Assembly: GCA_963839395.1 (NCBI GenBank)
Contig: CAWIUW010000003.1
Coordinates: 40,393 to 104,392 of the forward strand
Origin: an uncultured Actinomycetota bacterium
GTDB taxonomy: Bacteria > Actinomycetota > UBA4738 > HRBIN12
Length of the DNA stretch: 64,000 nt
Reading direction: 5' to 3'
Made by a program: the position numbers and the translations under genes. Of the stretch, positions 10,054 to 57,161 are shown piece after piece. The notes under the pieces were generated by a model. That model was not told where the DNA came from, did not search any database, and was given only the letters and a program-made list of their open reading frames with translations. Every line of letters starts with the position of its first letter. Within the stretch, counting starts at the first letter, position 1.

Positions 10054-10716
10054 TCCAGGCATGGTCGTGTGGCGAGCCAGATAGGCGGCAGCTTCCGCGC
10101 GCCTGGCGACTTCGAGCTTCGAGAGGATCGAGGAGACGTAGTTCTTCACCGTCTTCTCCGCCAGGGTGAGCTCGTCGCCGATCTCCTTGTTGGTCCGGCC
10201 GTCGGCGATGAGGGTCAGGATCCGCTCCTCCTGTGGAGAGAGGCGCGCGAGCTTCTCATCCCTCATCAGGTGCTTCCCCTTACGGAGCCGGTCGAGGACG
10301 GCGGTCGTCACCGAGGGATCCAGGAGGCTATCGCCGGCTCCGACGGCACGGATGGCTCGGACGAGTTCGCCGGAGCGAACCTGCTTCAGCACGTAGCCGG
10401 AGGCCCCCGCCATGATCGACGCGAACAGCGCTTCGTCATCCGCGAACGAGGTGAGCATGAGCACACGGGTCGTCGGATGCTTGGCGCGGATCTCGCGCGT
10501 CGCCTCGATCCCGCTCCCATCGGCGAGTCGGACGTCCATCACGACGACATCCGGTCGGGTCCGGTCGGCCTCATCGATGGCCTCTCGGACCGTGCCCGCT
10601 TCCGTCGTCACGTGGATGTCGTCCTCGGACGCGAGCATCGCTCGGATCCCGTCCCGCACGACCTCGTGATCGTCCACGAGCATGACCCGCAGGGGAGGGC
10701 TCTTCGGCTCGGTCAT
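10042..10716 (-). CDS. NarL/LuxR-family response regulator (DevR/DosR-like)
   Basis: ORF of 224 aa. The receiver has VMLVDDHEVVRDGI, VVVMDVRLADGSG, MLTSF and YVLKQ. The C-terminal LuxR HTH reads LSPQEERILTLIADGRTNKEIGDELTLAEKTVKNYVSSILSKLEV. Confidence 0.9.
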   Translation of the reverse strand: MTEPKSPPLRVMLVDDHEVVRDGIRAMLASEDDIHVTTEAGTVREAIDEADRTRPDVVVMDVRLADGSGIEATREIRAKHPTTRVLMLTSFADDEALFASIMAGASGYVLKQVRSGELVRAIRAVGAGDSLLDPSVTTAVLDRLRKGKHLMRDEKLARLSPQEERILTLIADGRTNKEIGDELTLAEKTVKNYVSSILSKLEVARRAEAAAYLARHTTMPGSVE

Positions 10717-10739
10717 CGGTGGATGTTAGCCCGCCCGGT

Positions 10740-11243
10740 TCATGCCGACGCCGGCTCGGCTCTGCCCAGCTCGGTAGGACCCGGCGCATCTCGGCTCCCC
10801 ATGATCGTCTCGGCAACCCGGTCGAGGAAGTCCTTGAGCGTCGCCTCGGCGACCCTCGAGAGGACCGCGCGATCGATCGCTCGGCCCACGGCGCCGAAAG
10901 GAGGCACGTACCTCGCGCTCATCGCGAGCTGGGTGCGCCCGGGACGAAGGAGTGCCACCTCGAGGTCGGCATCGAGCGATGGGAAGAGTCCCGCAGCACC
11001 GGAAGCGGTCCACCGGAGCGGGAACACGGTCTTGGCTCCTGAGCGAACCGCTTCTCCGAGCTCAACGGCCACCGTTCTCTTGATCCGGACGTGCTCCCCG
11101 AAACCCACCTCGGCGAGGAGCAGGTCCCCGCGGTGATTCGCTCGCTCCGCCAACCCGGGAAGCCACGCACGCGGGTCTCGCGCCAAGGCACGCTCGACCT
11201 CTTCTGGGGGGATCGGCACCTCGACGAAATACCTGGCGAACAT
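10740..11243 (-). CDS. Hypothetical protein (possibly SRPBCC-fold)
   Basis: ORF of 167 aa with clean coding-like composition. It sits between the kinase and regulator genes on the same strand. No diagnostic motif was recognised. Confidence 0.6.
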   Translation of the reverse strand: MFARYFVEVPIPPEEVERALARDPRAWLPGLAERANHRGDLLLAEVGFGEHVRIKRTVAVELGEAVRSGAKTVFPLRWTASGAAGLFPSLDADLEVALLRPGRTQLAMSARYVPPFGAVGRAIDRAVLSRVAEATLKDFLDRVAETIMGSRDAPGPTELGRAEPASA

Positions 11244-11311
11244 AGATACAAGGATGCGTGCGGTCGGGTCGCGGCGGAGGGGTCGATGGTCCTGGCTCTG
11301 GCGGGACCTGT

Positions 11312-12457
11312 TCAGGACGGGAACGTCGCTCGGACGGTCGTCCCTTCTCCAGGCGTGCTCTCGACCTGAAGGACTCCACCCAGGGACTCAACCCGCTGCC
11401 GAAGGTTGCTGAGGCCCATGCCCCAGGTCGTCATGTCGACGTCGAACCCCCGTCCGTCGTCGTCGACCTCGAGGAAGAGGCCGGCCTCTCCTCTCCGGAG
11501 TGAGACTCGGCACGTGGTGGCAGCCCCGTGCCGGCCGACGTTCGAGAGTGCCTCACGCACGAGCTGCACCACATCGCCGGCGCGCGAGGCGAGCTGGGAC
11601 GCAGCCTCGCTGTCCACCTCGACGACCGTCACGACGCCCGAGCGGGCGCCGAACTCGCTCGCCATCTCCTTGAGCGCCTGATCGAGCTGACGGTCCGCCA
11701 GGATCCCCGGTCGGAGGCCGAAGATGTAGTTGCGCAGGTCTCGGATCGAGTGGTCGACATCCTCGACGGCGGCTTCCAGGCGACGGGCCATATCCTCGTC
11801 GCTGGATGCGGCCGCCAGTCCTTGCAGGCTCATCCCGACGGCGAAGAGCGACTGGATGACGCCGTCGTGGAGCTCTTTGGCGATCCGTTCACGCTCCTCA
11901 AGGACCTGGAGCCTCTGGAGCTCCCTGCTCTTGCGCTCGGTCTCGTCGTAGAGGCGTGCGTTCTCGACGGCGATCGCGGCCTGGGTCGCGAGGACGACAA
12001 GGACACGTTCGTCCTCCTCGTCGAACGTCTCCGCGCCTTGCTTATCAGTGAGGTAGATGTTCCCGAACACCCTCCCGCGTCCGCTGACCGGAGCTCCGAG
12101 GAGGGACTTCATCGGGGGGTGATTCGGAGGGAACCCGACCGACCGCGGATCCGCGCTGATATCGGGGATCCGGAGAGGCCGGGCCTCGGTGATCAGAGCC
12201 CCAAGGAGCCCGTGGCCGGTCGGAGGGTCGCCGAGGGCAGCGCGTTCCTCCGGGGTGATCCCCACCGTGATGAATTCCTCGATCAACCGGCCGTCGGGCG
12301 TGAGGACGCCCAGCGCCCCGTACCGGGCATCGGTGAGATCGACCGCCAGCTCGACGATGCGGAGGAGCACCGTGTCGAGCGAAAGCTCCGAGGCAGCGAG
12401 GATCATGCCAGCCTCGATCAGCCGTCGATCTCCGTCTCTGGCGTCCCCTCCGAGCAT
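11312..12457 (-). CDS. GAF-domain sensor histidine kinase (HisKA_3 type, DevS/DosT-like)
   Basis: ORF of 381 aa. It has an N-terminal GAF-like region (VLLRIVELAVDLTDARYGALGVL...NIYLTDK) and an H-box ERERIAKELHDGVIQSLF. It also has the N-box REALSNVGRHG, G1 DDDGRGF and G2 GMGLSNLRQRVESLGG. Confidence 0.9.
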   Translation of the reverse strand: MLGGDARDGDRRLIEAGMILAASELSLDTVLLRIVELAVDLTDARYGALGVLTPDGRLIEEFITVGITPEERAALGDPPTGHGLLGALITEARPLRIPDISADPRSVGFPPNHPPMKSLLGAPVSGRGRVFGNIYLTDKQGAETFDEEDERVLVVLATQAAIAVENARLYDETERKSRELQRLQVLEERERIAKELHDGVIQSLFAVGMSLQGLAAASSDEDMARRLEAAVEDVDHSIRDLRNYIFGLRPGILADRQLDQALKEMASEFGARSGVVTVVEVDSEAASQLASRAGDVVQLVREALSNVGRHGAATTCRVSLRRGEAGLFLEVDDDGRGFDVDMTTWGMGLSNLRQRVESLGGVLQVESTPGEGTTVRATFPS

Positions 12458-12615
12458 GGCACGAGCGTAGTCGAACCCCTTCGGCAGCGATGACCAGGTC
12501 TGCTTCGCGCCGACCTACCCGGGGTGCGTCGTCAAGCCCGGGTCGATCCTGGTTGACCGATCCGGGACACGACCGACGCAGACGCGTTCGTTCGGGCCCG
12601 ACTTCGTGCGAGTCG

Positions 12616-12804
12616 TCAGGCTGCTTTCCGGCCCTCCAGTCGCGGTACGAGCCTCGTCACCTTCGCCCTCTCACCGCGCCGACGGATCAGCACTGCGATC
12701 GCGACACAAGCGGCAACGAGCACGAGGATGCCCAGGACGACCATTCCTTCGGGACCGTTCCCTGCCACATCCGGAACTGCCGGTGGAATCCCTGCTCCGA
12801 ACAT
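12616..12804 (-). CDS. Small membrane protein (62 aa, hypothetical)
   Basis: ATG at 12804 is preceded by GGAGGTG with a 6-nt spacer. The protein has one TM (MVVLGILVLVAACVAIAVLI) followed by a basic tail. The longer ORF 12616-12933 has an implausible N-terminus. Confidence 0.5.
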   Translation of the reverse strand: MFGAGIPPAVPDVAGNGPEGMVVLGILVLVAACVAIAVLIRRRGERAKVTRLVPRLEGRKAA

Positions 12805-12886
12805 CGCACTCACCTCCACGTCACATCGTCGCTGTCCCGCGAATAGCAGAGGAGAGTCGAACGACCCGGCCCCGACAGGACTCCAG

Positions 12887-13891
12887 CTAATCCTGCCTTC
12901 GGAGGAGTTCCCCCTCGAAAAATGTGAGGACACGGTGCTCGTACTCAGCAGGGTGTGTACGAAGTGCCTGCGTGTGGGGTGTGTCGGGCAGTGTCCACGA
13001 TGTGATCGTGTCTCGCGCGGCGTCGGCGTAGATCGGGTTGAGCTTCCGCTCGTTCGACGGCGAGCCGGAGATCATGAGAACCGATGCCTCGATCCGCGGC
13101 ATCAGGTCGATCAGCGGCTCCGGAGGCTCCTCGGGAGCCAGGATCCCCACCAGCGCGAACGTCAGCCACGCGTTGACGTATCCGACCGGGTGCGGCTCCG
13201 GCTCACGCTGGGCGTCGGCCCACGTTCGAGCGGAGACACCTTCGACGACGACAGCCCCGACCCGGTGATCGAGCGCGGCGACGGTGAGGCCAACCTCGCC
13301 GCCCATCGAAAGACCGAGTAGGCCGATGCCGTGCGTCACGCCGGGCTGGTCCAGGACGAAGGAGATCGCCGCGGTCACGTCACGGTCGGCGCCCCAACCG
13401 AACTCCATGCTGCGTCCGGCGCTCCGCCCATGCCCACGCCAGTCGAGCAGCAACGCGCCGTAGCCATGTCGGGCGACGAGTGCCGCGTGATCCAGCACCG
13501 CATGCCTCGTGGAGCCCGAGCCCGGCAAGAGAACGATGGCTGCGCCGTTCCTCGAGGGAACCCACCACGCCGAGAGGGTGGTTCCGTCCGGACTCGAGAT
13601 GCGCACGTCCTGGAAGGGGAGTCCCACATCTGCGGGAGTCCTCCCGGACCCGGTCGGGCGCGGCCGATTCGTAACGTCCAGCGCTACGCCGGCGGGCAAG
13701 AGGACGAACTGCGCGACGAGGAGTGTGGACACGAGAGCGGTTGCGACCCTCACCCACCGGCGTGGGATCCGGCGGAGGGTTCGCTGCCACCCCAGGACGA
13801 CGAGAACCACGCCCATCACTGCGGCGATCCCGCCGAGCGCATCGACCGCCGATACTCCGTCCGCGAGGCCTCGCCCCCCCGACCCTAACAA
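12887..13891 (-). CDS. Membrane-anchored alpha/beta hydrolase
   Basis: ORF of 334 aa with a TTG start. N-terminal TM segments are followed by AAIVLLPGSG...HGYGALLLDWRGHGRSAG and the nucleophile elbow GLLGLSMGGEVG. Confidence 0.85.
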   Translation of the reverse strand: MLGSGGRGLADGVSAVDALGGIAAVMGVVLVVLGWQRTLRRIPRRWVRVATALVSTLLVAQFVLLPAGVALDVTNRPRPTGSGRTPADVGLPFQDVRISSPDGTTLSAWWVPSRNGAAIVLLPGSGSTRHAVLDHAALVARHGYGALLLDWRGHGRSAGRSMEFGWGADRDVTAAISFVLDQPGVTHGIGLLGLSMGGEVGLTVAALDHRVGAVVVEGVSARTWADAQREPEPHPVGYVNAWLTFALVGILAPEEPPEPLIDLMPRIEASVLMISGSPSNERKLNPIYADAARDTITSWTLPDTPHTQALRTHPAEYEHRVLTFFEGELLRRQD

Positions 13892-45868: not shown

Positions 45869-46602
45869 TCACGGCTGCGTGACGGCCCAGAGCTCGGCGA
45901 CCAGCGCCCGAAGCCGTTCGGTCGGCTCGACGCCGAGCTCCAGCATCAACAGCTCGCCGTATCTGGCGAACTCCCGAAGCGCCTCGGTGGGGTTGCCTTC
46001 CGCGATGTGCACCCGGATGAGCGCCGCCCGGGGACTTTCCCTGAGCGGCTCGGCTCGCACCGCCGCGAGGGCAGCGGCCGCTGCATCGCCGTAGTTCCCC
46101 TGGGCCGTGAGACGGTCGGCGAGCACCTCGAGGGCGTGAAGGCGGAGCTGCCGCCAGTCCTCGGCTTCGACGAGCGCCCACTCGTCGTACCAGTCCGGGA
46201 GGAGCTCGGCCGAGAGGGTCGAGATCGCTTCCCGTCCCGGATCCTTCGAGGGTGAAGGCCCGGTCGGGGCGAGCAGCCGGGTCGGCGAGCGCCCGCGCAT
46301 CCCAGAGATCGACGGTGACATCGTCGGACAATCCGAGATCCCGGGCGGTCGCCGTCGACCGAGGCCCGAGCTCCGCCCCGCAACCGCGACAGTGCCGAGC
46401 GAAGGCTGGACGAGGCGTGCACGTCGGTCGCGACCGGCCACAGCGTGCCCGCCACCGTTTGTCGCTGGATCAACCTTCCCTTCAGTGCGAGGAAGGCCAA
46501 CAGGCGCTGAGATCCTTCCGGGAGGATGATCGCGGGACCCTCCCTCTCCAACTGGAACCCGCCCAGGAGGGAGATCCGGAGACCCGAGCTGCCCTGAGTC
46601 AA
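45869..46602 (-). CDS. SARP-family transcriptional regulator (OmpR-type winged helix + BTAD; frame-disrupted)
   Basis: The wHTH text LRISLLGGFQLEREGPAIILPEGSQRLLAFLALKGRLIQRQTVAGTLWP is in ORF 45946-46602. The middle part is in ORF 45750-46331. The BTAD text LLPDWYDEWALVEAEDWRQLRLHALEVLADRLTAQGNYGDAAA...LIRVHIAEGNPTEALREFARY is in ORF 45869-46693. Confidence 0.8.
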
Positions 46603-46689
46603 GACATCCCCCTCTGTCAGCGGCTCCGATCAGCGAGCCCAGGACCGTCCTGCTGAAGCGCAACCCTACTTGTTCTTGTTCAGCCCTCG

Positions 46690-46718
46690 TCACGCCGGCG
46701 TCACGGCACGGTCACGGC
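46690..46718 (+). promoter_or_regulatory. Three heptamer direct repeats at 11-bp phasing: candidate SARP binding site
   Basis: TCACGCC is at 46690-46696, TCACGGC at 46701-46707 and TCACGGC at 46712-46718. The repeat starts are exactly 11 bp apart. They lie in the intergenic region between the SARP gene (start 46602, minus) and the DUF4234-like/ABC operon (start about 46780, plus). Confidence 0.55.
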
Positions 46719-46779: not shown

Positions 46780-47239
46780 ATGGCTCGAGATGGTCACCAT
46801 CGACGGACAGCAGTACAAGAAGCGCAACCCGCTCGGAGTCCTCGGGCTCACGTTCCTCACGCTGGGCGTGTATTTCCTTGTACTGGTACTACAAGATCAA
46901 CGATGAGCTCAGGCGAGTCGCTGAAGGAAGAGAGCGATCAGCCCGACGCGGTCGCTGATGGCCATGATCTTCGGCTGGCTGATCATCGTGCCGCCCTTCA
47001 TCGCCATGTACAACACCGCGAAGCACGTGCAAGAGCTCGAGACGCGACGAGGAGTCGTTCAGACGGTGGAGCCGGCATTGACGATCGTGTTGATGCTCCT
47101 GCTCTCGTTCGCCAACGGGATCTACATCCAGGAGCACCTGAACCGTGCATGGGGTTCGACGGCCGCTCCGGCCCTCCTCCCGCTCCCGGTCTCGTGCCGA
47201 CAGGCTCCTGAGCGAAGCAACGAGAGGAGGGCGTCGTGA
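46780..47239 (+). CDS. DUF4234-like small membrane protein (frame-disrupted)
   Basis: ATG 46780 follows the RBS GAGGAGGCGGAGGG. The text (M)VTIDGQQYKKRNPLGVLGLTFLTLGVYFL/YWYYKINDELRRV spans two frames. The C-terminal part is in ORF 46958-47239. Its stop overlaps the next start as GTGA. Confidence 0.6.
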
Positions 47240-48171
47240 TCGAGGCCAAGGGTCTGAGCAAGCGGTACGGGTCGAAGGTCGCGGTCGACGACTCTGAGCT
47301 TCGAGGTGAACCCGGGCCGCGTGACCGGGTTCCTCGGTCCCAACGGATCGGGGAAATCGACCACGATGCGCCTTATGCTCCAGCTCGACCACGGCGAGAC
47401 CGGTCAGACGACTGTTCGACGGCCAGCGGTACGCCGACATCCAGTACCCGACGAAGGAAGGTCGGTTCACTGCTCGAGGCGCACGCGGTGCACCCCAAGG
47501 TGACGGCCGAGGAACCATCTGCGCGTGCTCGCGGCCGCCGACCGGATCCCAGAAGCGAGGATCGACCACGTCTTCGGACCAGGTGGGGCTGGCCGATGCA
47601 GCCGATCGCCAGACGGGGGGGTTCTCCCTCGGGATGTTCCAGCGGCTGGGTTTGGCGACGGCGCTGCTGGGCGATCCTGAAACCTTGATCCTGGACGAAC
47701 CGATGAACGGCCTTGACCCGGAGGGCATCCATTGGATCCGCGTCTCTCCTGCGGCAGCTGGCCGGAAGAAGGCAGGACCGATATTCGTCTCGAGCCACCT
47801 GCTCGCCGAGATGGCGGAGACCGTCGACGATCTCGTCGTGATCGGTCGCGGTGGAGCTTGATCGCGCAGACGGCGCTCGCCGAGTTCATCGGCCATGCCC
47901 GGTCAAGGGGTGAGGGTTCGGAGCCCGCAACTGGATGAGCTCGGTGAGGCATGCTCGCAGGGCCTCGGAGCGGAGACGACGCTCGGAGACAGACGGGAGT
48001 CATCACGGTCTCCGGCGCAGAGGCCTCGGTGATCGGTGACCTCGCGGCGCAGCGGTCGATCGCTCTTCACGAGCTCGTCGATGGTGAGCGTTCTCGTTGG
48101 AGGAGGCGTTCCTGGATGCGACCGCCGGTTCAGGCGAATACATGTCTCGATCCGCCAGGACGTCCCGATGA
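47236..48171 (+). pseudogene. ABC transporter ATP-binding protein, reading frame shattered
   Basis: Motifs are crisp but spread over all frames. They include [48 protein letters not shown] and [15 protein letters not shown]. Further on are FSLGMFQRLGLATALLGDPETLILDEPMNGLDPEG, IFVSSHLLAEMAETVDDLVVIGRG and SLEEAFLDATAG. At least 8 shifts are needed. The stop is at 48169-48171. Confidence 0.75.
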
Positions 48172-48967
48172 TCGTGCCCGACGAAGAGCCCGTCGGCCCT
48201 GAGCGAGGAGGACCGGTGAACAAGCTCATCCGCTCGGAGTGGCTCAAGCTTCAGCACGCTGCGGACCACCTGGATCCTCGCCGCCCTCGCGATCGTCACG
48301 GCGATGGCGATCACCGGGGTGGCGACGGCCACGGTGCAAGGCGGGCATGAGCTCGCTTCGAGCGGGTCGACCTCTTGCTCACGCCGGCTCCGTTGCTCGT
48401 TCGGCTGTTCATCCTCGTGTCTGGGCGATCATGGCGTTCTCGAACGAGTACCGCTACGGCACGATCATCCCGAGCTCTTGCCGCGGCTCCGATCCGTACT
48501 GAGCTCCTCGGCGCGAAGCTGATCGTGCTGGGGGCCTTCGGGCTCGTCTTCTGGGAGCGGTCGTGACGGTCGCCTCCACCGTGACCGGGCTGCGACGGTG
48601 CTGTCCATCATCGGCCAGCCGGTGTCGGTGTTCGACGGAGAGATCCCACGGGCCATCGTGGGCACGATCGGCTTCTACGGGATCTGCGCGGTCGTCGGTG
48701 TCGGTGCTGGGGTCCTGGTGCGTCAGCCCACGATCGCGATCGGCATCCTCATGCCGTGGGCATTGTTCGCGTGAGAAGGCGCTCGGGAGCGTTCCTGCCC
48801 AACCTCGCGACGTTACCTGCCGTTCACAGCCGGCGAGCAGCTCTACGCGGTCACGACGGAGGGTCCGCCTCTCGATGCTGGTGTGGGCGCTGCGCTCTTC
48901 CTGACGTGGACGGCGCTGTTGGTCGATCGTGGGGATGGTGCTATTCCAGCGGCGCGACGTCGCCTGA
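48168..48967 (+). pseudogene. ABC-2 type transporter permease, reading frame shattered
   Basis: ATG 48168 overlaps the upstream stop as ATGA. The text VNKLIRSEWLKL.. is followed by TM fragments in several frames. The natural C-terminus IVGMVLFQRRDVA* has its TGA at 48965-48967. Confidence 0.65.
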
Positions 48968-49677
48968 CGATCGACGTTCGCGCACACGGTGCGACGACCA
49001 GAGCGGTCCCGAGCGCGATCGATGGTCCCGAACAGGACACCGGCGACCGCGTCCGAGAGCCAGTGCGCTCCCAGGTAGGTCCGCGAGAGGGCCATCAGGG
49101 ACGAGAACGCGACGGCCGCCGCTCCCCACCGATAGCGGCGCGGCCCCTCGGGGACCAGCGCGATCACCGCTGCCACGGCGGTGACCGAGGCGGCCACGGC
49201 GTGCCCCGAGGGGAACGAGGCGCTGCTCGTCTCGACGAGCGATCCGAGCGCCCGAGGCCGGTCGTAGAGCGCCTTCAGCGTCCCGATCAGGATCTCCGAG
49301 ACGACGATCGCGGAGACGAACGCGGCGAAGTGCCACCATCTCCGCCGGATCGCCAACCACCCGGCGATCCCGAGCCGGATCGGTGTCATGACGTAGGCCA
49401 GCCCGATCAGGTTGAAGACCCTGGCCGCCACCGTCAGCGATCCGGTCCGGAGCGACACGATCCATCGGAGGAACGCGTCGTCGATCGGCTGGATCCATCC
49501 GCGGCCGGCATGGGTGGCCATGAGAGCGAAGAAGGCAACGGTCGCCGCCACGAGGATCGCCGTGACCACCGTGTCGCGTCGCGGCATCCCGAGGAGCGGG
49601 TGCTCTTGCTCGTCTCCTGGATCCTCGGTTTCCACCGGCCGGCGGCTCACGGCGGACACGGCGCGCCTCGACCGCAC
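48941..49677 (-). CDS. PAP2-family phosphatase (canonical catalytic motifs; 3' end uncertain)
   Basis: ORF 48454-49677 has KALYDRPR, FPSGHAVAAS and SRTYLGAHWLSDAVAG. After GVLFGT the frame decays into Arg-rich text, so there is a shift. Plausible ends are at 48941 or 48843. An alternative start is MPRRDTVV at 49587. Confidence 0.75.
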
Positions 49678-51851
49678 AGGGCGAGACCCTCCGTCTCTCG
49701 GAGGTGCGCCACCAGGTCGGCTCGGGGGACGAACGACACGGCCTCGTCCACGTCGAACACCATCGCCGTGGACGCGCCTTCATCGAAGGCGAACCGATAC
49801 GTGGCGCATCCTCCCGGGAACACGTAGGAGCGGACGTTGAGGAGCTGCGGCGTGAGGGCGGACGGAGCCTCGAACCTGCGCGTACCCGCTTCATCGGAAG
49901 GGACCTCGTGGGCACTCGACACATCGCACGCCGACGCGAGCGTCACCGTGACCGCCCGCATCCCGGCCAGGTCGGAGTTCAGCCAGAAGGTCGCCTCGCC
50001 GGTGTGGATGTCGCCGCCACCGTAGGTCCACCCGGAGGGCAAGGCGGCCAGACAGGGGATCGCCGCCGCGCTCGGCACGGCCTGCGCCGAGAGGATGGAT
50101 GCTCGGCTCACTCCGCATTCGGGCGCGTGCACGACCCCGAGGTTCTGCGCCGGAAGGAAGGCCTGGATGCTGGATGAGACCGCGATCGCGAACGCAACGA
50201 GCATCCCGAGGCCGAGGAGGACCCGACGGACGCTCCACCGTTGGATCGAGATCGGCCGGCGTTCCGGCGCGAGCGCGCGGAACTGACCCACGAGGTCACG
50301 AGGGTCCCGCTTCATGAAGGCTCGGAGCTGCGTGGGACTCGCGATCCCGCGGGTGGCGGCGAACGCCTCGGCGATCTCATCGGCGGTGAAGAACGTGAGC
50401 GCGCGCCGGTACACGAGGTCGACGTCCGAGCGGACCGCCAGGACGAGCATCATGTTGCCGAGGTCCACCGCCTGCCGCCACGGGGACGGTTTCACCTGCG
50501 CGAAGAAGACATCGATCAGAAGCACGCGTCCGTCCCTGACCATCAGGTTCGCCGGCTTGATGTCGCGATGCGCCAGACCCGCGTCCCACAGCTTGCGGAC
50601 CAGCGAGAGTCCGTCGTCCACGATCCCCTCGTCGACGTCGACATCCCCGATCTCCTCGGCGCCCTCGAAGAACTCCATGACGATCATGTACTCGCGTTCG
50701 GGAGAGATCTCGACGATCCCCTGCGGCGTCGGCACGGGGATGCCTTCATCCGTCATCAGTCGCAGCGTGTAGTCCTCGTATTCGACGAAGCGGCGGACGG
50801 ACTGGAAGGACGCCTCGTCCTCGAGTGCGCCGTAGAGGATGATCCGCGACAGCTTGTACCACCGATCCGCGCGCACGTGGCTCTTCGCGTAGAGCTTCGC
50901 GAACAGATAGGTGTCCGGATCGCCGGCGACCTTGAGGCGAAGCGGCGTCGAACCTCCGGACCCCTCCAGCCCCACCGGCTTGATCTCGAGCACCGTGAGC
51001 CCGAGCTGCTCGTGCACCGCCTCTCGGATCGCCTCGCCTCGTCGACCCGTCACGTCGAGGTGCGCCGTGCTGCCCTTCCGATAGACGACGGGGAACACCT
51101 CGTTCGGCGTGAACCAGCGGAACGCCGTGAGCGGGAACGCCACGCCCAGGATCAGCCCGTACAGCACGCCGGAAGGTCCGTCGACCGCCAGATACATCCG
51201 CGAGACCACGAAGAGCCCGATGAGGCCGGCGATCGCGAGTTTCGCGTACCAGCGGGGGCGCCCGGGTACGACGAGCGAATAGACGATGCCGATCATGACG
51301 GCCGTGAGCGCGGCGACGGGCGCAGACGGCAACGCGAACCCACCCCACCCGGCGATGATCGTCACGCCGTACGGACGTGGTCGGCTCAGCAGCTCGTAGA
51401 CGATGCCTCCCACGATCTGCATGACGAAGAGGCTTCCCAGGAAGACCAGCAGGTGACGCCATCTGCGGAAGACCATCAAGGCGCACACCATGCCCAGGCC
51501 CAGAACGGTCATCCCCCAATCGGACCCGGCTGCCTTGATCCCGCGCATGATCGGCGTCAGCCAGTCCGCGCGGAGGTTCGCGACGCGGAGCAGCCACCAG
51601 GTCTCGACACGGTCAGAGAAGTGCAGCACCGCGTCGATCTGCAGCACGAGCACAGTGGCGATCGACGCGTAGGCCATCATCGCGAGCCAGAATCGGCCGC
51701 TCGCACCCATCCTCCGTCGCAACGGTGGTGGAGCGCCGGTCGGACGTCGCTGCTTCCGCGTTCGCCTGATCGTGTCCTCGTGGTCGGGCACGGTGACGAC
51801 GTCGGGCGCGCCGGCGGCGCCTCGCGAAACCGCCTCGGGGTCGTCCGTCAC
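49647..51851 (-). CDS. Fusion protein: degenerate PAP2-like membrane domain + protein-kinase-like domain + TM + Cys-rich extracytoplasmic domain
   Basis: This is the uninterrupted ORF 49647-51890. The likely start GTG 51851 overlaps the upstream stop as GTGA. PAP2-like positions are mutated: YELLSRPRP (Lys to Tyr), LPSAPV (PSGH to PSAP) and SRMYLAVDGPSG (His to Asp, Asp to Gly). The kinase part has the G-loop LEGSGGST, then YLFAKLY, HRDIKPANLMV and LLIDVFF. A TM (VLLGLGMLVAFAIAV) and a 170-aa tail with 6 Cys follow. Confidence 0.85.
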   Translation of the reverse strand: MTDDPEAVSRGAAGAPDVVTVPDHEDTIRRTRKQRRPTGAPPPLRRRMGASGRFWLAMMAYASIATVLVLQIDAVLHFSDRVETWWLLRVANLRADWLTPIMRGIKAAGSDWGMTVLGLGMVCALMVFRRWRHLLVFLGSLFVMQIVGGIVYELLSRPRPYGVTIIAGWGGFALPSAPVAALTAVMIGIVYSLVVPGRPRWYAKLAIAGLIGLFVVSRMYLAVDGPSGVLYGLILGVAFPLTAFRWFTPNEVFPVVYRKGSTAHLDVTGRRGEAIREAVHEQLGLTVLEIKPVGLEGSGGSTPLRLKVAGDPDTYLFAKLYAKSHVRADRWYKLSRIILYGALEDEASFQSVRRFVEYEDYTLRLMTDEGIPVPTPQGIVEISPEREYMIVMEFFEGAEEIGDVDVDEGIVDDGLSLVRKLWDAGLAHRDIKPANLMVRDGRVLLIDVFFAQVKPSPWRQAVDLGNMMLVLAVRSDVDLVYRRALTFFTADEIAEAFAATRGIASPTQLRAFMKRDPRDLVGQFRALAPERRPISIQRWSVRRVLLGLGMLVAFAIAVSSSIQAFLPAQNLGVVHAPECGVSRASILSAQAVPSAAAIPCLAALPSGWTYGGGDIHTGEATFWLNSDLAGMRAVTVTLASACDVSSAHEVPSDEAGTRRFEAPSALTPQLLNVRSYVFPGGCATYRFAFDEGASTAMVFDVDEAVSFVPRADLVAHLRETEGLALCGRGAPCPP

Positions 51852-52777
51852 GAGCCCTCCATCAAGACCGATCGGTGGTCCTCCAGCCATGAGGCGGCCA
51901 CATCGTGAGCCGACTCTCCGCCGACGACCCGGCCGATCATCGCTCGCAGGTCCGAGGTCGTGAGGGATGCCGACACCGCGTCCAGGGTCTGGACGACGCC
52001 GTCGCCGTGCGTGGACAGGACCTCCCGACGGACGAGGGGCGTCACGTTCTCCGATGGCTGCAGTCCCCGGTCATCGGCCAGGACGACGAGTCTTTCGGAC
52101 ACGATCGCAGGATCGGTGGTGAATAGGAGAGCCACGTCGATGCCTCCCGATCGGAGCGCCTGAAGGGTCAGAGGTCCACCCGTGTCCAAGGGGATGAATT
52201 CCTCGAACCTGAGCCCGTACACGCTCTCGAGGCCCACCAGGCAGAGGCGCCGCTGCGCGCACTCGGGTGGGCCACCGAACACCAGTCGCGAATCCACGGA
52301 CGCGAGGTCGCTGATATCGCGCAAGCCGTAACGATCGGCCGTCGCCTGCGTCACGACGATCGCGTTCGCATCCTGGGCGGGGGCAGGCGCCAGCGCGATG
52401 AGGCCCGATGGCGTCACGACATCCATCAGTGCGTCATGGGTCTCGCTGATGCTCGCGGTCCCCTCGAGGGCGCCGAGCGTGAGGAAGGCGAGGGCCGAGC
52501 CGGCGTATTCGGGAACCACATCGATCAGCCCTTCCGCCAGCGCCGGTTGCACGAGCTCCCTCGGGCCGGCGTTCAGCACCGGGTCGATCGGGTAGCCCTT
52601 CGCCTCCAAGGCCTGGGAGTAGAGCTCGGCGAGTATCTCGCTCTCCGTGAAGCCGAACGCGGCAACCGTGATGGCGTCGGGCGAGCGGGGTGGCGGCGAC
52701 GAGGGGTCTCCCGTGCAGGCGGCGAGGACAACGAGAAGGCCGACGACGCGGGGAGCGCGCCGGATCCGAGCCCTCAT
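51848..52777 (-). CDS. OpuAC-type (glycine betaine/choline-family) substrate-binding lipoprotein, orphan
   Basis: ATG 52777 overlaps the upstream stop as ATGA. The lipobox is LLVVLAAC. SBP text includes ITVAAFGFTESEILAELYSQALEAKGYPI, DVVPEYAGSAL and IDVALLFTTDP. No cognate ABC permease or ATPase is adjacent. Confidence 0.82.
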   Translation of the reverse strand: MRARIRRAPRVVGLLVVLAACTGDPSSPPPRSPDAITVAAFGFTESEILAELYSQALEAKGYPIDPVLNAGPRELVQPALAEGLIDVVPEYAGSALAFLTLGALEGTASISETHDALMDVVTPSGLIALAPAPAQDANAIVVTQATADRYGLRDISDLASVDSRLVFGGPPECAQRRLCLVGLESVYGLRFEEFIPLDTGGPLTLQALRSGGIDVALLFTTDPAIVSERLVVLADDRGLQPSENVTPLVRREVLSTHGDGVVQTLDAVSASLTTSDLRAMIGRVVGGESAHDVAASWLEDHRSVLMEGS

Positions 52778-53907
52778 CCTGGGGAGCCCGCGGGAACGGC
52801 GGATGGCTGGGGGACCTCGGGCTGCGGTTTCCGCCAGCTCTTCTTGCGCTGCCAGATCAGGTACGTGAAGCCGCCCAACGGGATCTGGACCCCGTACGTC
52901 AACGTCCGGAACAACAGCGCGGCAGCCGTCACCTGAACCTTGAACTCCTCGAGCGGGACATCGGTGTGGGTCCTGCCGGCGGCGTAGAGACCGCCGATCA
53001 GCCCGAGCTCCACTATGCCCACGCCACCGGGCGTGATGGGGATGGCCGAGATCAGCCGGACGAACGCGAAGACCGCAAGCACCTGGATCGTGCTCACCTC
53101 GTGCGCGGACACACCTACGTGACGAAGCGAGAGGAGCAGCACGAACCACAGGGCGAGGTGGCTCGCGACGGTCGTGATCGTCAGCGCGGGCCACCGCCTG
53201 ACGACCAGCCCGATCGTCTGCTTGCGGAACCGCACGGCGCCTTCACCCCATGTGTGGACGGGGGGCTTGTGGAAGACCCCTCGGATCGTCGACCAGATCT
53301 TGCCGAGCCGGGTTCCGATCGCCCGGGCGAGTGATTTCTTCCACAGCACCATCGCGAACAGGACGACGCTACCGGCGAGGAACACGAGCCCGATCAGCGC
53401 CGGCGCGAGCAGGGTATTCGTGGCCCGGCCCATGATCGCGAGCAGCGCCACAGCCATGATCGGGAGCCCCAGCTTCAAGAACGTGTTCCAGATGCCGGTC
53501 GTCGACGCGAGCAGGGCGACCTCGGAGCCCGTGAACCCCCACGAGTGGAACATCCCGTACATGAGGCCGGTCGCGGCAACGCCGGCCCCCGGCACGAGGT
53601 TGGCGACGGTCGTCGAGGTCTGATTGCTCACCGCCGCCTGTCCGAGCGTGAGTCCCGGCATCGCCGACTGCATCTGCCACCAATAGGTGAAGAGATTGAA
53701 GACGGTGGCCGCGATGAGCGAGACCATCTCGATCCACGTCAGGGCCTTGATGGTCTCCCACACGTCCGCGTAGCTGGCGATCTTCGGCAGGATCAGCCCG
53801 AAGATCGCGATCATGACCAGTGTGGACAGGGAGCCCTGGACCAGGAGGATCACTCGCTTGCGTCGCGCTCGATCGACCGATGCCATCACCGTCGAGCTTG
53901 CCCTCAT
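52774..53907 (-). CDS. Lysylphosphatidylglycerol-synthase-TM-region-like (UPF0104/flippase-like) membrane protein
   Basis: The start is ATG 53907 (MRASSTVMASVDRARRKR). The protein has about 8 TM segments and the characteristic tail FAFVRLISAIPITPGGVGIVELGLIGGL. The ORF extension to 54078 is implausible. Confidence 0.78.
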   Translation of the reverse strand: MRASSTVMASVDRARRKRVILLVQGSLSTLVMIAIFGLILPKIASYADVWETIKALTWIEMVSLIAATVFNLFTYWWQMQSAMPGLTLGQAAVSNQTSTTVANLVPGAGVAATGLMYGMFHSWGFTGSEVALLASTTGIWNTFLKLGLPIMAVALLAIMGRATNTLLAPALIGLVFLAGSVVLFAMVLWKKSLARAIGTRLGKIWSTIRGVFHKPPVHTWGEGAVRFRKQTIGLVVRRWPALTITTVASHLALWFVLLLSLRHVGVSAHEVSTIQVLAVFAFVRLISAIPITPGGVGIVELGLIGGLYAAGRTHTDVPLEEFKVQVTAAALLFRTLTYGVQIPLGGFTYLIWQRKKSWRKPQPEVPQPSAVPAGSPG

Positions 53908-53992
53908 CCGGTCGAGGTCACAACCCGAGCACGGCGGCCCCCCGAGCTCGCCTGGGGGTCGATGTTCTACGGTGTTCTCAGGAGGGCGTGAG

Positions 53993-54877
53993 ATGGGCGA
54001 CTCGAAGGTCAAGGGGAAGCAACGCGGCCGCGAGTCACCCGACCATCCCACGCAGGATCTCACCGCGTCGCCTCCCAAGGTGCCGAAGAAGGTCTACGCG
54101 GCCGAGCTCCTTCGGCTCCAGGAGGAGCTCGTGAAGATGGCCGAGTGGGTGAAGGCGTCGGGCGAGCGCGTGGTGGTGATCTTCGAGGGACGAGACGCGG
54201 CGGGCAAGGGTGGCGCGATCAAGCGCATCACCGAGCATCTGAATCCGAGGATCGCCCGGGTGGTCGCGCTTCCGGTGCCCTCGGAACGTCAGACGACTCA
54301 GTGGTACTTCCAGCGGTACGTGGAGCATCTGCCGGCCGGAGGCGAGATCGTGTTGTTCGACCGCAGTTGGTACAACCGGGCCGGCATCGAGAAGGTGCTC
54401 GGGTTCTGCACACCCGAGGAGCACCGGATGTTCCTCCAACAATGTCCGATCTTCGAGCGACTGCTCGTCGCCGACGGCATCCACCTGACGAAGTACTGGT
54501 TCTCCGTGAGTAACCAGGAGCAAGGGCGGCGTTTCGAGGCGCGGATCGACGACCCGATGCGTCGCTGGAAGCTCTCCGAGACGGATCTCGATTCGCGCAC
54601 CCATTGGGTCGACTACTCGCGGGCCAAGGACGAGATGTTCGTGCACACCGACATCCCGGAGGCACCGTGGTTCGTCGTCCCCGCCGACGACAAGCGTCGG
54701 GCTCGCCTCAACTGCATGGCACACCTACTGAGCCGACTCCCGTACGTACCGAAGACGCTCAAGGAACTGGAGCTACCGGCGCGTCAGGACGACGAGGGCT
54801 ACGTGCGGCCTCCGCGTGAGATCTACACGTACGTGCCCGATCACACCGCGAGCCTGACGCGCGAAGGTTCCCCCTGA
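53993..54877 (+). CDS. ppk2: Polyphosphate kinase 2
   Basis: ATG 53993 follows AGGAGGG. Text includes the Walker A FEGRDAAGKGG, then FDRSWYNRAGIEKVLGF, KYWFSVSNQEQGRRF and RWKLSETD. Confidence 0.92.
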   Translation: MGDSKVKGKQRGRESPDHPTQDLTASPPKVPKKVYAAELLRLQEELVKMAEWVKASGERVVVIFEGRDAAGKGGAIKRITEHLNPRIARVVALPVPSERQTTQWYFQRYVEHLPAGGEIVLFDRSWYNRAGIEKVLGFCTPEEHRMFLQQCPIFERLLVADGIHLTKYWFSVSNQEQGRRFEARIDDPMRRWKLSETDLDSRTHWVDYSRAKDEMFVHTDIPEAPWFVVPADDKRRARLNCMAHLLSRLPYVPKTLKELELPARQDDEGYVRPPREIYTYVPDHTASLTREGSP

Positions 54878-54936
54878 GGACCGAACTCAGACATCGAAAG
54901 AAGACTCGAGAGATCCGCGCACGGGCATGTGCGTGG

Positions 54937-56258
54937 TCACGAGGCGAACGTCCAATCTGGGCGTTTGCTCCGGTAGGAATGGTCGTACTCGAACCGGTTC
55001 ATCGTCGGATCCCAATCGACGATCTTGTGGAAGGGTAGGTCTCGAGGCAGAGGACAGGTCGAGCCACGTGGGCGCGGAACTCGTCGGCGAAGATCTGCAC
55101 CACGCTCTGCATGAGCAGGCTCTCCCCGGTCGGGAGGGCGCACTTCTGTCCGTCGGTGGAACTCCTGGCTCGCGCGAGGATCGTCTCGAGATCCGGCGCG
55201 CGACCCTCGAGCTCGATCTCATCCAGGCTTCGGGTGACCTCCCCCGTGCCGAACTTGCAGGCCGGACATTGGGCGCATGACTCGACCCAGAGGAAACGAG
55301 AGTAGAGGTACGCCGCACGAACCATGCACGCGGTGGCGTCGAAGACCGCGAATCCGCCCGAGCCCAGGCTCGAACCGGCCGTGCGCATCGAATCGAAGTC
55401 CAGCGGCGTGTCGAGTTGTTCCGGAACGATCACCGTGTTCGAGGCACCGGGGAAGATGGCCTTGACCGACCCACCCTCCCTCGGTCCTCCCGCCCGGTCC
55501 TCCACCAACGAACGAAGAGGTGTGCCGAGCGGCAACTCGAACACGCCCTCTCGCCGGACGTCCCCGCACACGGTGAAGAGCATGGTGCCCGGTGAGGTCT
55601 CCGTCCCGTTCGAGCGGAGCCGATCCGATCCATCCGCGAGGATCCAAGGCACGTTCGCGAGCGTCTCGACGTTGTTCACGAGGGTGGGGTTGTCCTTCGG
55701 CGGCGCGGCGAACAGACCGAGCATGAAGGGCCGAGCGACCCGCGGGAGCGGCGGTCTTCCCTCGATGACCTCCTCGAGGCCCGTCTCTTCTCCGAACAGA
55801 TAGAGGTCAGGCCCGAGGACCACCTCGAACGGCCTGCCCCCGAGCGCGTCCGCCTCGCGCATCTCCTCCAGGGCGCGGGAGATCGCCTGGATCTCTTCCG
55901 AGAACGTCTCCTTGATCCCGATGTAGCAGCGCTCGGCGCCGACGGCGTACCCGGCGATCGCCAGGCCTTCGAGGATCTGATACGGGTTCGTCCTCATGAG
56001 CGCGCGATCCTTGAACGTCGCGGGCTCTCCTTCGGCGCCGTTGCACACCACGAACCGCGTTCCCGTCCCCGTGGTTCGGATCGACCGCCATTTCTCACCG
56101 GTCGGGAAGCCCGCCCCGCCGCGACCACGGAGGCCGCTCTTGGCGACTTCCTCGATGACGGCCTCCGGAGCCGCGCCCAAGGCAACCTCGAGACCACGGC
56201 CTCCACCCGTCTCCAGGTACTCCGTCAAGGAAGTGATCGTGTTCCCGAGGAGTGTCAC
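54937..56258 (-). CDS. Stand-alone NuoF-like flavoprotein (NADH dehydrogenase subunit F family; 3' frame shift near 55040)
   Basis: ORF 54999-56258 has GLRGRGGAGFPTGEKW, VVCNGAEGEPATFKDR and the 4Fe-4S motif ESCAQCPACKFG...KCALP. The C-terminus continues as CPLPRDLPFHKIVDWDPTMNRFEYDHSYRSKRPDWTFAS* in ORF 54937-55143. Confidence 0.85.
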
Positions 56259-56331: not shown

Positions 56332-56607
56332 TCACATGCCGAGGATCTTCGCCTTCTGGGCGTCGAACTCCTCTTGGGTGAGCACGCCGGCCGCCTTCAG
56401 CTCACCGAGCTCCTTGAGCTGCTCGAGGGTGGCGTCCTGGCTCGAGGCAGCCGCGGGCGGCGGCGGGGGTGGTTCGGCGTATGACGCGGCTTCCTGTTGG
56501 GACCATCGGTTCGCCTGACGACGCGACACTCGGTTCGAGACGGCCGTCGCCGTTCCCGCAACGACCGCCGTTCGCGCCACTCCACGGAGCAGTCCTGGCA
56601 TCGTCAT
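56332..56607 (-). CDS. SHOCT-domain protein
   Basis: ORF of 91 aa. A Pro-rich linker is followed by LEQLKELGELKAAGVLTQEEFDAQKAKILG. Confidence 0.8.
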   Translation of the reverse strand: MTMPGLLRGVARTAVVAGTATAVSNRVSRRQANRWSQQEAASYAEPPPPPPAAASSQDATLEQLKELGELKAAGVLTQEEFDAQKAKILGM

Positions 56608-57054
56608 TCACTCCTTCTCTTCGAGCTCGTCCAGCGCTGCGATGATCGCGTTCACGGGGATGCGCCCGTTCGCGACGAGCTGCGCGCCACTTCGACGCAG
56701 AGCAGTCGCGAACGGCGCCGCCCATGTGTTCTCGTACACGAGGAGCGCCGCCGAACAGCCGGGCTCGATCGCTGCCCCGGCCTCGGCGTAGTCGTCCTCT
56801 CCCAGCAGTCCGGACGAGGCACCTTCGAAGATGGTCAGCTCCGGAGCTCCGTCGGCCCCGACCGCATCGAAGTCGAGGCCTACGACCGACCCGTCCTCGT
56901 TCTTGTGGACGAAGGCAAGATCGAGCACACGGATGAGGCCTCGGTCCGCCAGGTCGGCGAGCAATGGCAACCCCTCGCCCGACGGCTGCTTCCCCGCAGG
57001 CCACTCGACGACGAGGTAGTCGATGGGGCCCAATTCGACGTCTTCGCCACTCAT
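56608..57054 (-). CDS. DUF6325-like protein (hypothetical), immediately upstream of the SHOCT gene
   Basis: ATG 57054 follows AAGGGGGA. The protein reads MSGEDVELGPIDYLVVEWPAGKQPSGEGLPLLADLADRGLIRVLDLAFV.... Its stop abuts the SHOCT start. Confidence 0.68.
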   Translation of the reverse strand: MSGEDVELGPIDYLVVEWPAGKQPSGEGLPLLADLADRGLIRVLDLAFVHKNEDGSVVGLDFDAVGADGAPELTIFEGASSGLLGEDDYAEAGAAIEPGCSAALLVYENTWAAPFATALRRSGAQLVANGRIPVNAIIAALDELEEKE

Positions 57055-57161
57055 GCGTTCCCCCTTTTCCGCGACGCACAACGATGACAGCAAGTCCGGC
57101 TAGGAACTATCGCAGGTGCGGAGGGGGGCGGCATCCGCCCATCGGGCTCGCTCCTCGGTGG

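Follow-up and report, generated by a model that had tools for sequence, protein, structure and literature searches.

What does an operon do in which a phosphatase-like membrane domain stripped of its catalytic residues shares one polypeptide with a complete-looking kinase, beside genes for a live phosphatase, a flippase-like protein and an orphan solute-binding lipoprotein? The question is raised by a 64,000-nucleotide stretch of contig CAWIUW010000003.1, from an uncultured Actinomycetota bacterium (the whole stretch is hereafter called the window), where four co-directional minus-strand genes at 48941-53907 encode, in this order, the flippase-like protein, the solute-binding protein (SBP), the fusion protein and a phosphatase of the PAP2 family (gene 4). 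Two answers, an envelope lipid cycle and an SBP-dependent kinase signalling device, had been offered by an earlier reading of the DNA letters (the sequence-only reading), and neither is proven. Our analysis leans towards signalling: we propose, with a probability of roughly 0.45, that the module is an SBP-assisted, receptor-like membrane kinase controlling the handling of lipid phosphates in the envelope. Signalling is favoured because relatives of the kinase are fused to receiver-LuxR or STAND-tetratricopeptide repeat (TPR) modules, because a partner protein carries a probable pseudokinase and the paralogues have expanded, and because of the HRDxKxxN catalytic loop, an invariant Ser/Thr motif and the orphan state of the SBP.

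The fusion protein

The four genes are coupled by start and stop overlaps where the sequence-only reading had placed them. The ATG of the SBP gene shares bases with the TGA of the flippase-like gene (ATGA 52774-52777), and the GTG of the fusion gene overlaps the TGA of the SBP gene (GTGA 51848-51851), with GGAGGG lying 6-11 nucleotides (nt) upstream. Gene 4 has two possible starts: GTG 49677, which gives a 31-nt overlap with the fusion gene and is also preceded by GGAGGG, or GTG 49650, which forms a GTGA overlap with the fusion stop at 49647-49649.

The fusion gene itself (49647..51851, minus strand) encodes 734 residues in an intact frame, and metagenomes hold homologues of the same 734-residue length that are 91-93% identical to it. 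An AlphaFold2 model of the protein (predicted local distance difference test, pLDDT, 72.6) shows a disordered basic N-terminus, helices over residues 50-247, an alpha/beta kinase domain at 270-530, a further helix at 541-565 and a beta-rich domain at 566-734. The topology predicted from this model places the kinase inside the cell, with the PAP2 pocket, the outer domain and the lipoprotein outside.

The six-helix N-terminal domain (residues ~50-247; 51111..51704, minus strand) shares 29-32% identity with gene 4 (E ~1e-11). Its score against Pfam PAP2 is 19.2 bits for a cut-off of 27.2, and relatives reach 32.6-35.3 bits. Aligned motif for motif with PgpB of Bacillus subtilis (5jki, E 0.0017), it has Tyr152 for the catalytic Lys (Y152ELLSRPRP), PSAP for PSGH (Pro178), Asp224 for the nucleophilic His and Gly228 for the Asp (SRMYLAVD224GPSG228). 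The same losses are seen among 61 cluster representatives: the C1 position is Lys in none of them, the C2 His is mostly replaced by Pro and kept in 2, and the C3 position is Asp in 36 and His in none, about half having a His one position later. Arg159 (C1), Ser176 (C2) and Arg218 (C3) are mostly retained. Both the homology to gene 4 and the PgpB alignment bear out the dead PAP2 domain of the sequence-only reading, the Lys and the His being lost; judged from these motifs, the domain is a PAP2 descendant that is catalytically dead in nearly all relatives sampled. The phosphate-contacting residues that it keeps may still serve to bind a lipid phosphate.

Just before the first transmembrane helix (TM1), on the cytoplasmic side, lies the juxtamembrane motif RRPTGAPPPL (residues 35-44; 51720..51749, minus strand), in which R35, R36, P37 and G39 are invariant in alignment A1. 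The consensus RRRRP[S/T]GxxPPLP occurs in 236 of 302 family members, variants fused to STAND or receiver (REC) modules included, and with a looser pattern the hydroxyl position is Ser or Thr in 250/255. The motif is a candidate phospho-acceptor or docking site. Its first residues resemble a site for basophilic phosphorylation, and the polyproline stretch behind them a docking motif.

At the other end of the protein, a seventh TM helix (residues 541-565; 50157..50231, minus strand) would return the chain to the outside according to the AlphaFold2 model. The domain that follows (residues 566-734, 169 aa; 49650..50156, minus strand) carries six invariant Cys, and a six-Cys domain placed after the seventh helix is consistent with an extracytoplasmic location; the additional helix and a tail of about 170 residues with six Cys had both been foreseen from the letters. 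When modelled alone, this outer domain reaches a pLDDT of 90 and a predicted template-modelling score (pTM) of 0.86. Foldseek found no match to it in the PDB at E <= 0.001, the best structures being BT_1490, Apa and PsbP-like proteins, with TM-scores < 0.4, and it is therefore assigned to no fold family.

Between the two membrane parts, the cytoplasmic kinase domain (residues ~270-530; 50262..51044, minus strand) displays a G-loop GSGGST, FAK319LY, E344, H428RDIKPAN435 and D447 (IDVFF). K319 and D447 are the catalytic Lys and Asp that had been claimed for it, and K319, E344, HRDIKPAN and D447 are retained in 55-58 of the 61 cluster representatives. The domain has the residue set of Hanks-type kinases, namely the beta3 Lys, the alphaC Glu, HRDxKxxN and the metal-binding Asp, and its catalytic core looks complete and active. 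Its fold appears to be of the Bud32/RIO type. RIO1 is the sole Pfam kinase model above its cut-off (26.3 bits for 22, over residues 364-461 only), Pkinase giving 18.2 bits for a cut-off of 31.7, and the closest folds by Foldseek are PRPK (7szc_C) and RIOK1 (4otp), with target-normalised TM-scores (TMt) of 0.67 and 0.58. The NCBIfam models of Bud32 (29.9 bits, cut-off 125), Rio1 (19.4 bits, cut-off 480) and Kdo all remain below cut-off. There is no activation segment, 16 residues separating D447 from the alphaF-like D463. Furthermore, a Pfam scan of relatives returned weak Kdo/WaaP and APH matches.

The likeness to Bud32/PRPK and RIO proteins extends to a short C-lobe devoid of an activation segment and to an AVDL motif after the metal-binding Asp. 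Bud32 and RIO proteins are, however, soluble, act in tRNA modification or ribosome maturation and have HGD loops, whereas the fusion kinase sits between TM helices, has HRDIKPAN, falls short of the NCBIfam Bud32 cut-off and has neither a Kae1 nor a ribosomal context: no Kae1 gene was found among the neighbours of the kinase genes, which are envelope genes.

The module across genomes and its partner proteins

A scan with one genome per species gave 212 stretches encoding the kinase family, of which 78 loci were analysed, each with at most 6 kb of flank per side. Among loci with enough flank, the SBP gene stands directly upstream of the kinase gene in 46/76; a PAP2 gene of the gene 4 type stands directly downstream of it in 54/71, and a gene with the flippase domain lies within the fetched locus in 52/68. 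At 50% identity and E <= 1e-30 the family forms about 594 clusters, and its metagenomic members number in the thousands. Cluster look-ups and homology searches returned metagenome or metagenome-assembled genome (MAG) proteins only, mostly from soil and peat, under names such as 'phosphatase PAP2 family protein', 'RIO1 family regulatory kinase/ATPase' or 'hypothetical', and no named or cultured relative.

The gene set also recurs, rearranged, in lineages less than 50% identical. In locus L085 the order is a divergent PAP2 gene, the flippase, the SBP, the kinase and the outer domain; in L086, it is the kinase, an outer-domain lipoprotein and two PAP2 genes, with the flippase on the opposite strand. 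Because the set is found in other orders in these distant loci, the five components are a functional unit and not a mere case of local synteny. The sequence-only reading had expected the genes to be syntenic in other genomes, and this holds across deep divergence. Synteny, the PAP2 ancestry of the N-terminal domain and the presence of the kinase Lys and Asp were the three points on which that reading had said that it could fail, and on all three the results agree with it.

The outer domain is itself a separable part. Short forms of the family, of about 560 aa, end after TM7, and in all five short-form loci examined the outer domain has a homologue encoded immediately downstream (hmmsearch E 2e-12 to 3e-47; L080:10262-10741, L083:7755-8249, L084:7683-8177, L085:7821-8246 and L086:7458-7973). 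This separate gene overlaps the kinase stop in 4/5 and its product has a lipoprotein-type lipobox in 4/5. This is a clear example of a domain that has been either split off or fused.

Other fusions are found at the N-terminus of the dead PAP2-kinase core. Two proteins, P0143 and P0148 (L080-L082), bear a receiver and a LuxR-type helix-turn-helix domain (REC+GerE), and five (P0132, P0134, P0141, P0146 and P0202) a STAND NTPase (AAA_16/nSTAND1) with TPRs. The STAND-TPR fusions could point to an anti-phage or inter-bacterial conflict system with a kinase effector, and PADLOC indeed gave weak matches to its kinase-containing PD-T4-6 and PglW models. These matches are limited to the generic catalytic loop (E 3e-6 or weaker), the other components matched nothing, the partners are envelope lipid proteins, and the window shows no mobile-element or defence-island neighbours. 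We regard such a role as very improbable, and a defence system was rejected, PADLOC having returned for the module the catalytic-loop matches of the kinase alone.

Several kinase paralogues per genome, often in tandem, are common, and the family expands in the way that sensor families do. Tandem duplications of the kinase gene, some together with the PAP2 gene, were noted in L012, L023, L024, L027, L040, L042, L052 and L067. The MAGs CAVUIU, CAVUBM, CAVSQL and others hold separate loci, up to three in some.

Among the partner proteins, the SBP (51848..52777, minus strand; 309 aa) is a lipoprotein of the OpuAC type (Pfam OpuAC 154.8 bits; cluster F-III-like) with a signal peptide, the lipobox LAAC21 and a conserved pair Cys173/Cys179. 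It matches the structures of EgtUC, ProX, OsmF and OpuCC with E values from 6e-21 to 5e-11, the closest (E 6e-21) being EgtUC, the ergothioneine-binding domain. The trimethylammonium cage of EgtUC is made of four aromatic residues, F293, Y341, Y419 and Y443 (PMC9732360). We mapped the SBP pocket onto this published description by a pairwise alignment at about 25% identity: the cage equivalents are Y91, N138, F219 and E243, aromatic in 2/4 (Y91 and F219), with D136 as base residue and E172 and R176 kept. In 48 module SBPs, F41, F43, Y91, S94, D136, N138, E172, R176, F219 and E243 are invariant or nearly so. As far as an alignment at about 25% identity can tell, the pocket is conserved yet has no classical quaternary-amine cage. 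The sequence-only reading had supposed a quaternary-amine type of ligand; the replacement of two of the four aromatic residues of the cage makes this doubtful.

The same reading had seen no cognate ABC (ATP-binding cassette) partners for this lipoprotein, and we found neither an ABC permease nor an ATPase cognate to it beside the SBP gene in the window, L005, L059 or L085. OpuAC proteins usually serve ABC importers and an ABC ATPase gene lies about 1.2 kb downstream of the operon (47236-47861), so the SBP might be imagined to serve an unlinked importer, the four genes being unrelated and neighbours by chance. We find this scarcely credible. The ATPase gene is convergent, on the opposite strand, and its counterpart at the corresponding position of L059 precedes a permease of the ABC-2 type and not of the OpuA type; the genes of the operon are joined by start/stop overlaps, their adjacency is kept in dozens of genomes and after rearrangement, and the pocket of the SBP does not vary within the module. 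L005, an 82%-identical relative, encodes another OpuAC-type SBP at 10515-11396, about 1.6 kb downstream of its PAP2 gene, which shares 44% identity with the SBP of the module; an ANTAR response regulator is encoded there at 12306-13121 on the minus strand.

Gene 4 (48941..49677, minus strand; ~245 aa) had been described as a canonical PAP2 phosphatase, and its three motifs are indeed intact (KALYDRPRA, PSGH and SRTYLGAHWLSD; Pfam PAP2 51.5 bits for a cut-off of 27.2). Its K, R, PSGH, SR, H and D are retained in 32-33 of 33 orthologues, and it is predicted from them to be a catalytically intact enzyme. The description needs amending on two points: motif C1 reads K-x6-R-A in this clade instead of K-x6-R-P, and the end at 48941 is reached only after frameshift correction. 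Comparison of the frames with the intact 246-aa orthologue of L005 places two single-base frameshifts at ~49020-49023 and ~48992, within the last ~30 codons and past motif C3, so that all the catalytic motifs lie upstream of the damage. As assembled, the open reading frame continues out of frame to 48454, and both corrections are needed to end at the TAG at 48941. Among the NCBIfam models, gene 4 matches SepP, PgpB and that of undecaprenyl-diphosphate phosphatase (PRK11837, NF008813), each with a score far under the cut-off.

Some predicted proteins also combine dead and live PAP2 domains. P0156 has a live PAP2 domain N-terminal to the dead PAP2-kinase core, in a consistent topology; it is a single case and possibly an assembly artefact. 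In P0119, P0371 and P0373 (966-972 aa), a live PAP2 domain follows the outer domain. We rejected these three as genuine fusions and take them for probable frameshift read-throughs, because the topology is inverted and one indel across the overlapping gene junction explains them.

P0156 and the adjacency of the dead and live paralogues bring in an alternative in which the kinase does not phosphorylate any substrate and works as an ATPase, a nucleotide-gated switch that regulates the live PAP2 through a dead/live heterodimer and whose nucleotide state is set by the outer domain and the SBP. This would fit the PRPK/Bud32 and RIOK1 folds, the RIO1 model being the sole one above its cut-off in Pfam, and the missing activation segment. 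On the other hand, the near-invariant Lys of HRDxK and the invariant Ser/Thr motif suggest real phosphotransfer, the one supporting fusion may be artefactual and the other three would be topologically impossible. We hold this alternative to be quite improbable.

The flippase-like protein (52774..53886, minus strand) counts 370 aa if started at ATG 53886, or 377 aa from ATG 53907. It had been assigned to the MprF-TM/UPF0104 type, which its 37 bits against Pfam LPG_synthase_TM support (cut-off 33.4; 41.1 bits for the L005 orthologue). It stays below the cut-offs of TIGR00374 (31 bits) and of bifunc_MprF (28.4 bits for 600) and is devoid of a C-terminal aminoacyl-phosphatidylglycerol (aminoacyl-PG) synthase domain. 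Orthologues lie beside the kinase in the distant loci L085 and L086 (41-46% identity, E 1e-87 to 1e-109) and in L071 and L077 (42-61% identity over matched pieces).

This standalone LPG_synthase_TM/UPF0104 form is that of the window's clade (7 loci) and of L071 and L077. In 43 loci the flippase domain is instead the C-terminal domain (LPG_synthase_TM 120 bits) of an 805-aa protein, which starts with a TM region and has a kinase-like domain in its middle. The kinase-like domain has HRS in place of HRD in 46/50 cases, with the Lys, the Asn and the Asp of DF kept, and is predicted from these residues to be a pseudokinase. The 805-aa proteins are 80-94% identical across MAGs, whereas the fusion kinases reach about 60%. 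Their N-terminal TM region may be a relic PAP2 domain: some members are labelled 'undecaprenyl-diphosphatase' by JGI, and comparison with PAP2 gave a non-significant, collinear hit (BLASTP E 0.49; hhalign E 0.1, probability 0.6%). The gene of the 805-aa protein stands beside the SBP, kinase and PAP2 genes at L059:2568-4985 and in 49 other related loci.

Signalling and lipid chemistry

In the proposed mechanism, the lipoprotein would take up a small extracellular ligand and then dock on the outer domain of the fusion protein. The dead PAP2 pocket, facing the outer leaflet, would hold a lipid phosphate without hydrolysing it, or would partner the live PAP2 phosphatase. Both the ligand and the lipid inputs would be relayed across the membrane to the kinase, which would act on Ser/Thr targets, the first candidate being its own juxtamembrane RRRRP(S/T)G motif; where relatives carry a fused response-regulator/LuxR or STAND-TPR module, that module is the candidate. 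The output would tune the live PAP2 phosphatase and the flippase-like protein, and hence how a lipid phosphate of the envelope is dephosphorylated and translocated; polyprenyl phosphate or diphosphate and a phospholipid are the candidates for this lipid.

Several observations weigh against this proposal. The kinase is devoid of the activation segment and of the elements for substrate binding that canonical protein kinases possess, and since it resembles Bud32/RIO proteins, which are often ATPases, and small-molecule kinases, protein phosphorylation is not assured. Relatives also match Kdo/WaaP sugar kinases weakly in Pfam. The cytoplasmic tail of gene 4 has a conserved E-H-x-L-L-x-x-P-R-R stretch with no conserved Ser/Thr. 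Furthermore, the short forms P0145 and P0148 have no adjoining PAP2, flippase or SBP gene, and the accessory genes are therefore not obligatory. Finally, the deep association of the kinase with PAP2 and flippase genes suits a direct role in lipid metabolism equally well.

Such a direct role would be a lipid head-group cycle: the kinase phosphorylates a lipid or a lipid-linked sugar inside the cell, the flippase-like protein exports it and the live PAP2 phosphatase dephosphorylates it outside, with the dead PAP2 domain and the SBP taking charge of the substrate or the product. TM6 and TM7, on either side of the kinase, clamp it to the membrane, it has a minimal C-lobe that lacks an activation segment, and the flippase domain is fused to a kinase-like domain in most relatives, all of which would suit work on a lipid, as would the weak Kdo/WaaP and APH matches and the company of a live PAP2 and an LPG_synthase_TM protein across deep divergence and varied gene orders. 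However, a catalytic loop of the form HRDxKxxN, Lys included, is the signature of protein Ser/Thr kinases and unlike the loops of known lipid, sugar and aminoglycoside kinases. The flippase-fused paralogue has lost the catalytic Asp and therefore cannot phosphorylate. The core is also found fused to REC-LuxR or STAND-TPR modules, and without PAP2 or flippase neighbours; the diversified paralogues within one genome resemble sensors, not housekeeping enzymes, and a phosphorylation followed by a dephosphorylation would leave no evident net product. On balance we judge this cycle less likely than signalling, but it is the main rival and a serious one. A more specific form of it, in which the kinase is not a protein kinase and is a membrane-clamped kinase of lipid or polyprenyl head groups within a phosphorylation-driven cycle of lipid export or recycling, seems to us a little more doubtful still; the dead PAP2 domain would then be the site of substrate handover, and the lipoprotein would capture the freed head group.

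If the signalling proposal holds, the module would unite a bacterial receptor kinase with an SBP as co-receptor and a pseudo-enzyme as sensor. It would provide the first PAP2-derived lipid-phosphate sensor coupled to a kinase and a new class of receptor kinases that combines a Bud32/RIO-like fold with the catalytic loop of protein kinases. Should the lipid cycle prove true instead, it would be a new route of envelope-lipid handling, by which lipids are moved or remodelled in Actinomycetota. The Thr38 motif, K319, D430, the SBP pocket and the fold of the outer domain offer experimental handles, and heterologous expression will be needed since the hosts are uncultured.

Known systems and the surrounding DNA

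The pairing of the fusion protein with gene 4 recalls that of PLPPR and LPP proteins in eukaryotes, where a dead PAP2 relative stands beside the live enzyme. Gene 4 resembles PgpB, BcrC and LpxT/YbjG by its three PAP2 motifs, and the fusion protein does so by its helix layout and by the RP, PS and R remnants of these motifs. The likeness to MprF lies in the LPG_synthase_TM domain of the flippase-like protein (37 bits) and of the 805-aa paralogue (120 bits), the former differing from MprF by the absence of an aminoacyl-phosphatidylglycerol synthase domain.

In overall architecture, the fusion protein is comparable to MviN (Rv3910) of Mycobacterium tuberculosis, a MurJ-pseudokinase and likewise an actinobacterial envelope protein: in both, a polytopic membrane domain of a type that deals with lipid-phosphate carriers is followed by a cytoplasmic kinase fold, a TM helix and an extracytoplasmic domain. 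The membrane domain of MviN is an active MurJ flippase, whereas that of the fusion protein is a dead PAP2. The pseudokinase of MviN, of the ActPs3 family, is degraded and binds neither ATP nor Mg (PMC12599244); the fusion kinase, unlike it, has lost none of its catalytic residues and shows a Bud32/RIO-like fold. For the outer domains of the two proteins, no homology to each other was detected in sequence.

The GlnH-GlnX-PknG system of mycobacteria and corynebacteria, in which an SBP is used for sensing and not for transport (PMC6069109, PMC9769921), offers another parallel, as there too the gene of an orphan SBP lipoprotein lies beside those of a membrane protein and a Ser/Thr kinase. GlnH, however, belongs to another SBP cluster and is of the amino-acid type, GlnX is a protein of its own with four helices and PknG is a soluble kinase; here the kinase is the membrane protein itself, the operon adds PAP2 and flippase-like proteins and the linkage is genetic only. 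The fusion protein is thus like MviN in architecture and like GlnH-GlnX-PknG in logic, and it is homologous to neither. Its parts and partners descend from PAP2 phosphatases, the protein-kinase-like superfamily (nearest to Bud32/RIO), OpuAC proteins and LPG_synthase_TM proteins.

The literature searched, including the atlases of bacterial kinases and pseudokinases, holds no PAP2-kinase or kinase-LPG_synthase_TM fusion and no account of this family, in agreement with the statement of the sequence-only reading that it knew of no characterised system of such composition. The 'PAP2-PIK-like module' of Segetibacter (bioRxiv 10.64898/2026.09.18.752743) is something else, its kinase being of a different family and unfused. 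The family joins the themes of the pseudo-enzyme as sensor or partner and of the SBP as co-receptor with the lipid phosphate chemistry of the envelope.

The window has a GC content of 65-71% and its genome one of 67%. Closest to it are MAGs of uncultured Actinomycetota assembled from long reads, such as L001 (96% protein identity, 89% DNA identity over 7.6 kb). Many genes of the window and of these MAGs are frameshifted at differing places, and the frameshifts are therefore probably long-read indel or assembly errors rather than marks of pseudogenes. Operon genes of the close relatives L002, L066 and L068 are frameshifted at positions other than those of the window. Outside the operon, a SARP/BTAD-type regulator (45869-46693, minus strand) and the ABC-transporter ATPase already mentioned (47236-47861, plus strand) are each split across two reading frames. 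A scan with Rfam of 47500-55500 returned no RNA family, and promoter and terminator scans, which are uninformative at 67% GC, returned nothing.

Upstream of the operon, a NuoF-like protein with Complex1_51K, SLBB and NADH_4Fe-4S domains is encoded at 54999-56258 (minus strand), with no other complex I subunit gene noted in the adjoining stretch examined. At 56332-57093 (minus strand), a small SHOCT-domain protein (91 aa) directly follows a DUF6325 protein (161 aa); nothing evident connects the two with the operon. A polyphosphate kinase 2 gene (PPK2, 339 bits; 53993-54877, plus strand) is divergent from the operon and holds the same position in L001, L004, L005 and L069, which belong to the close clade of the window.

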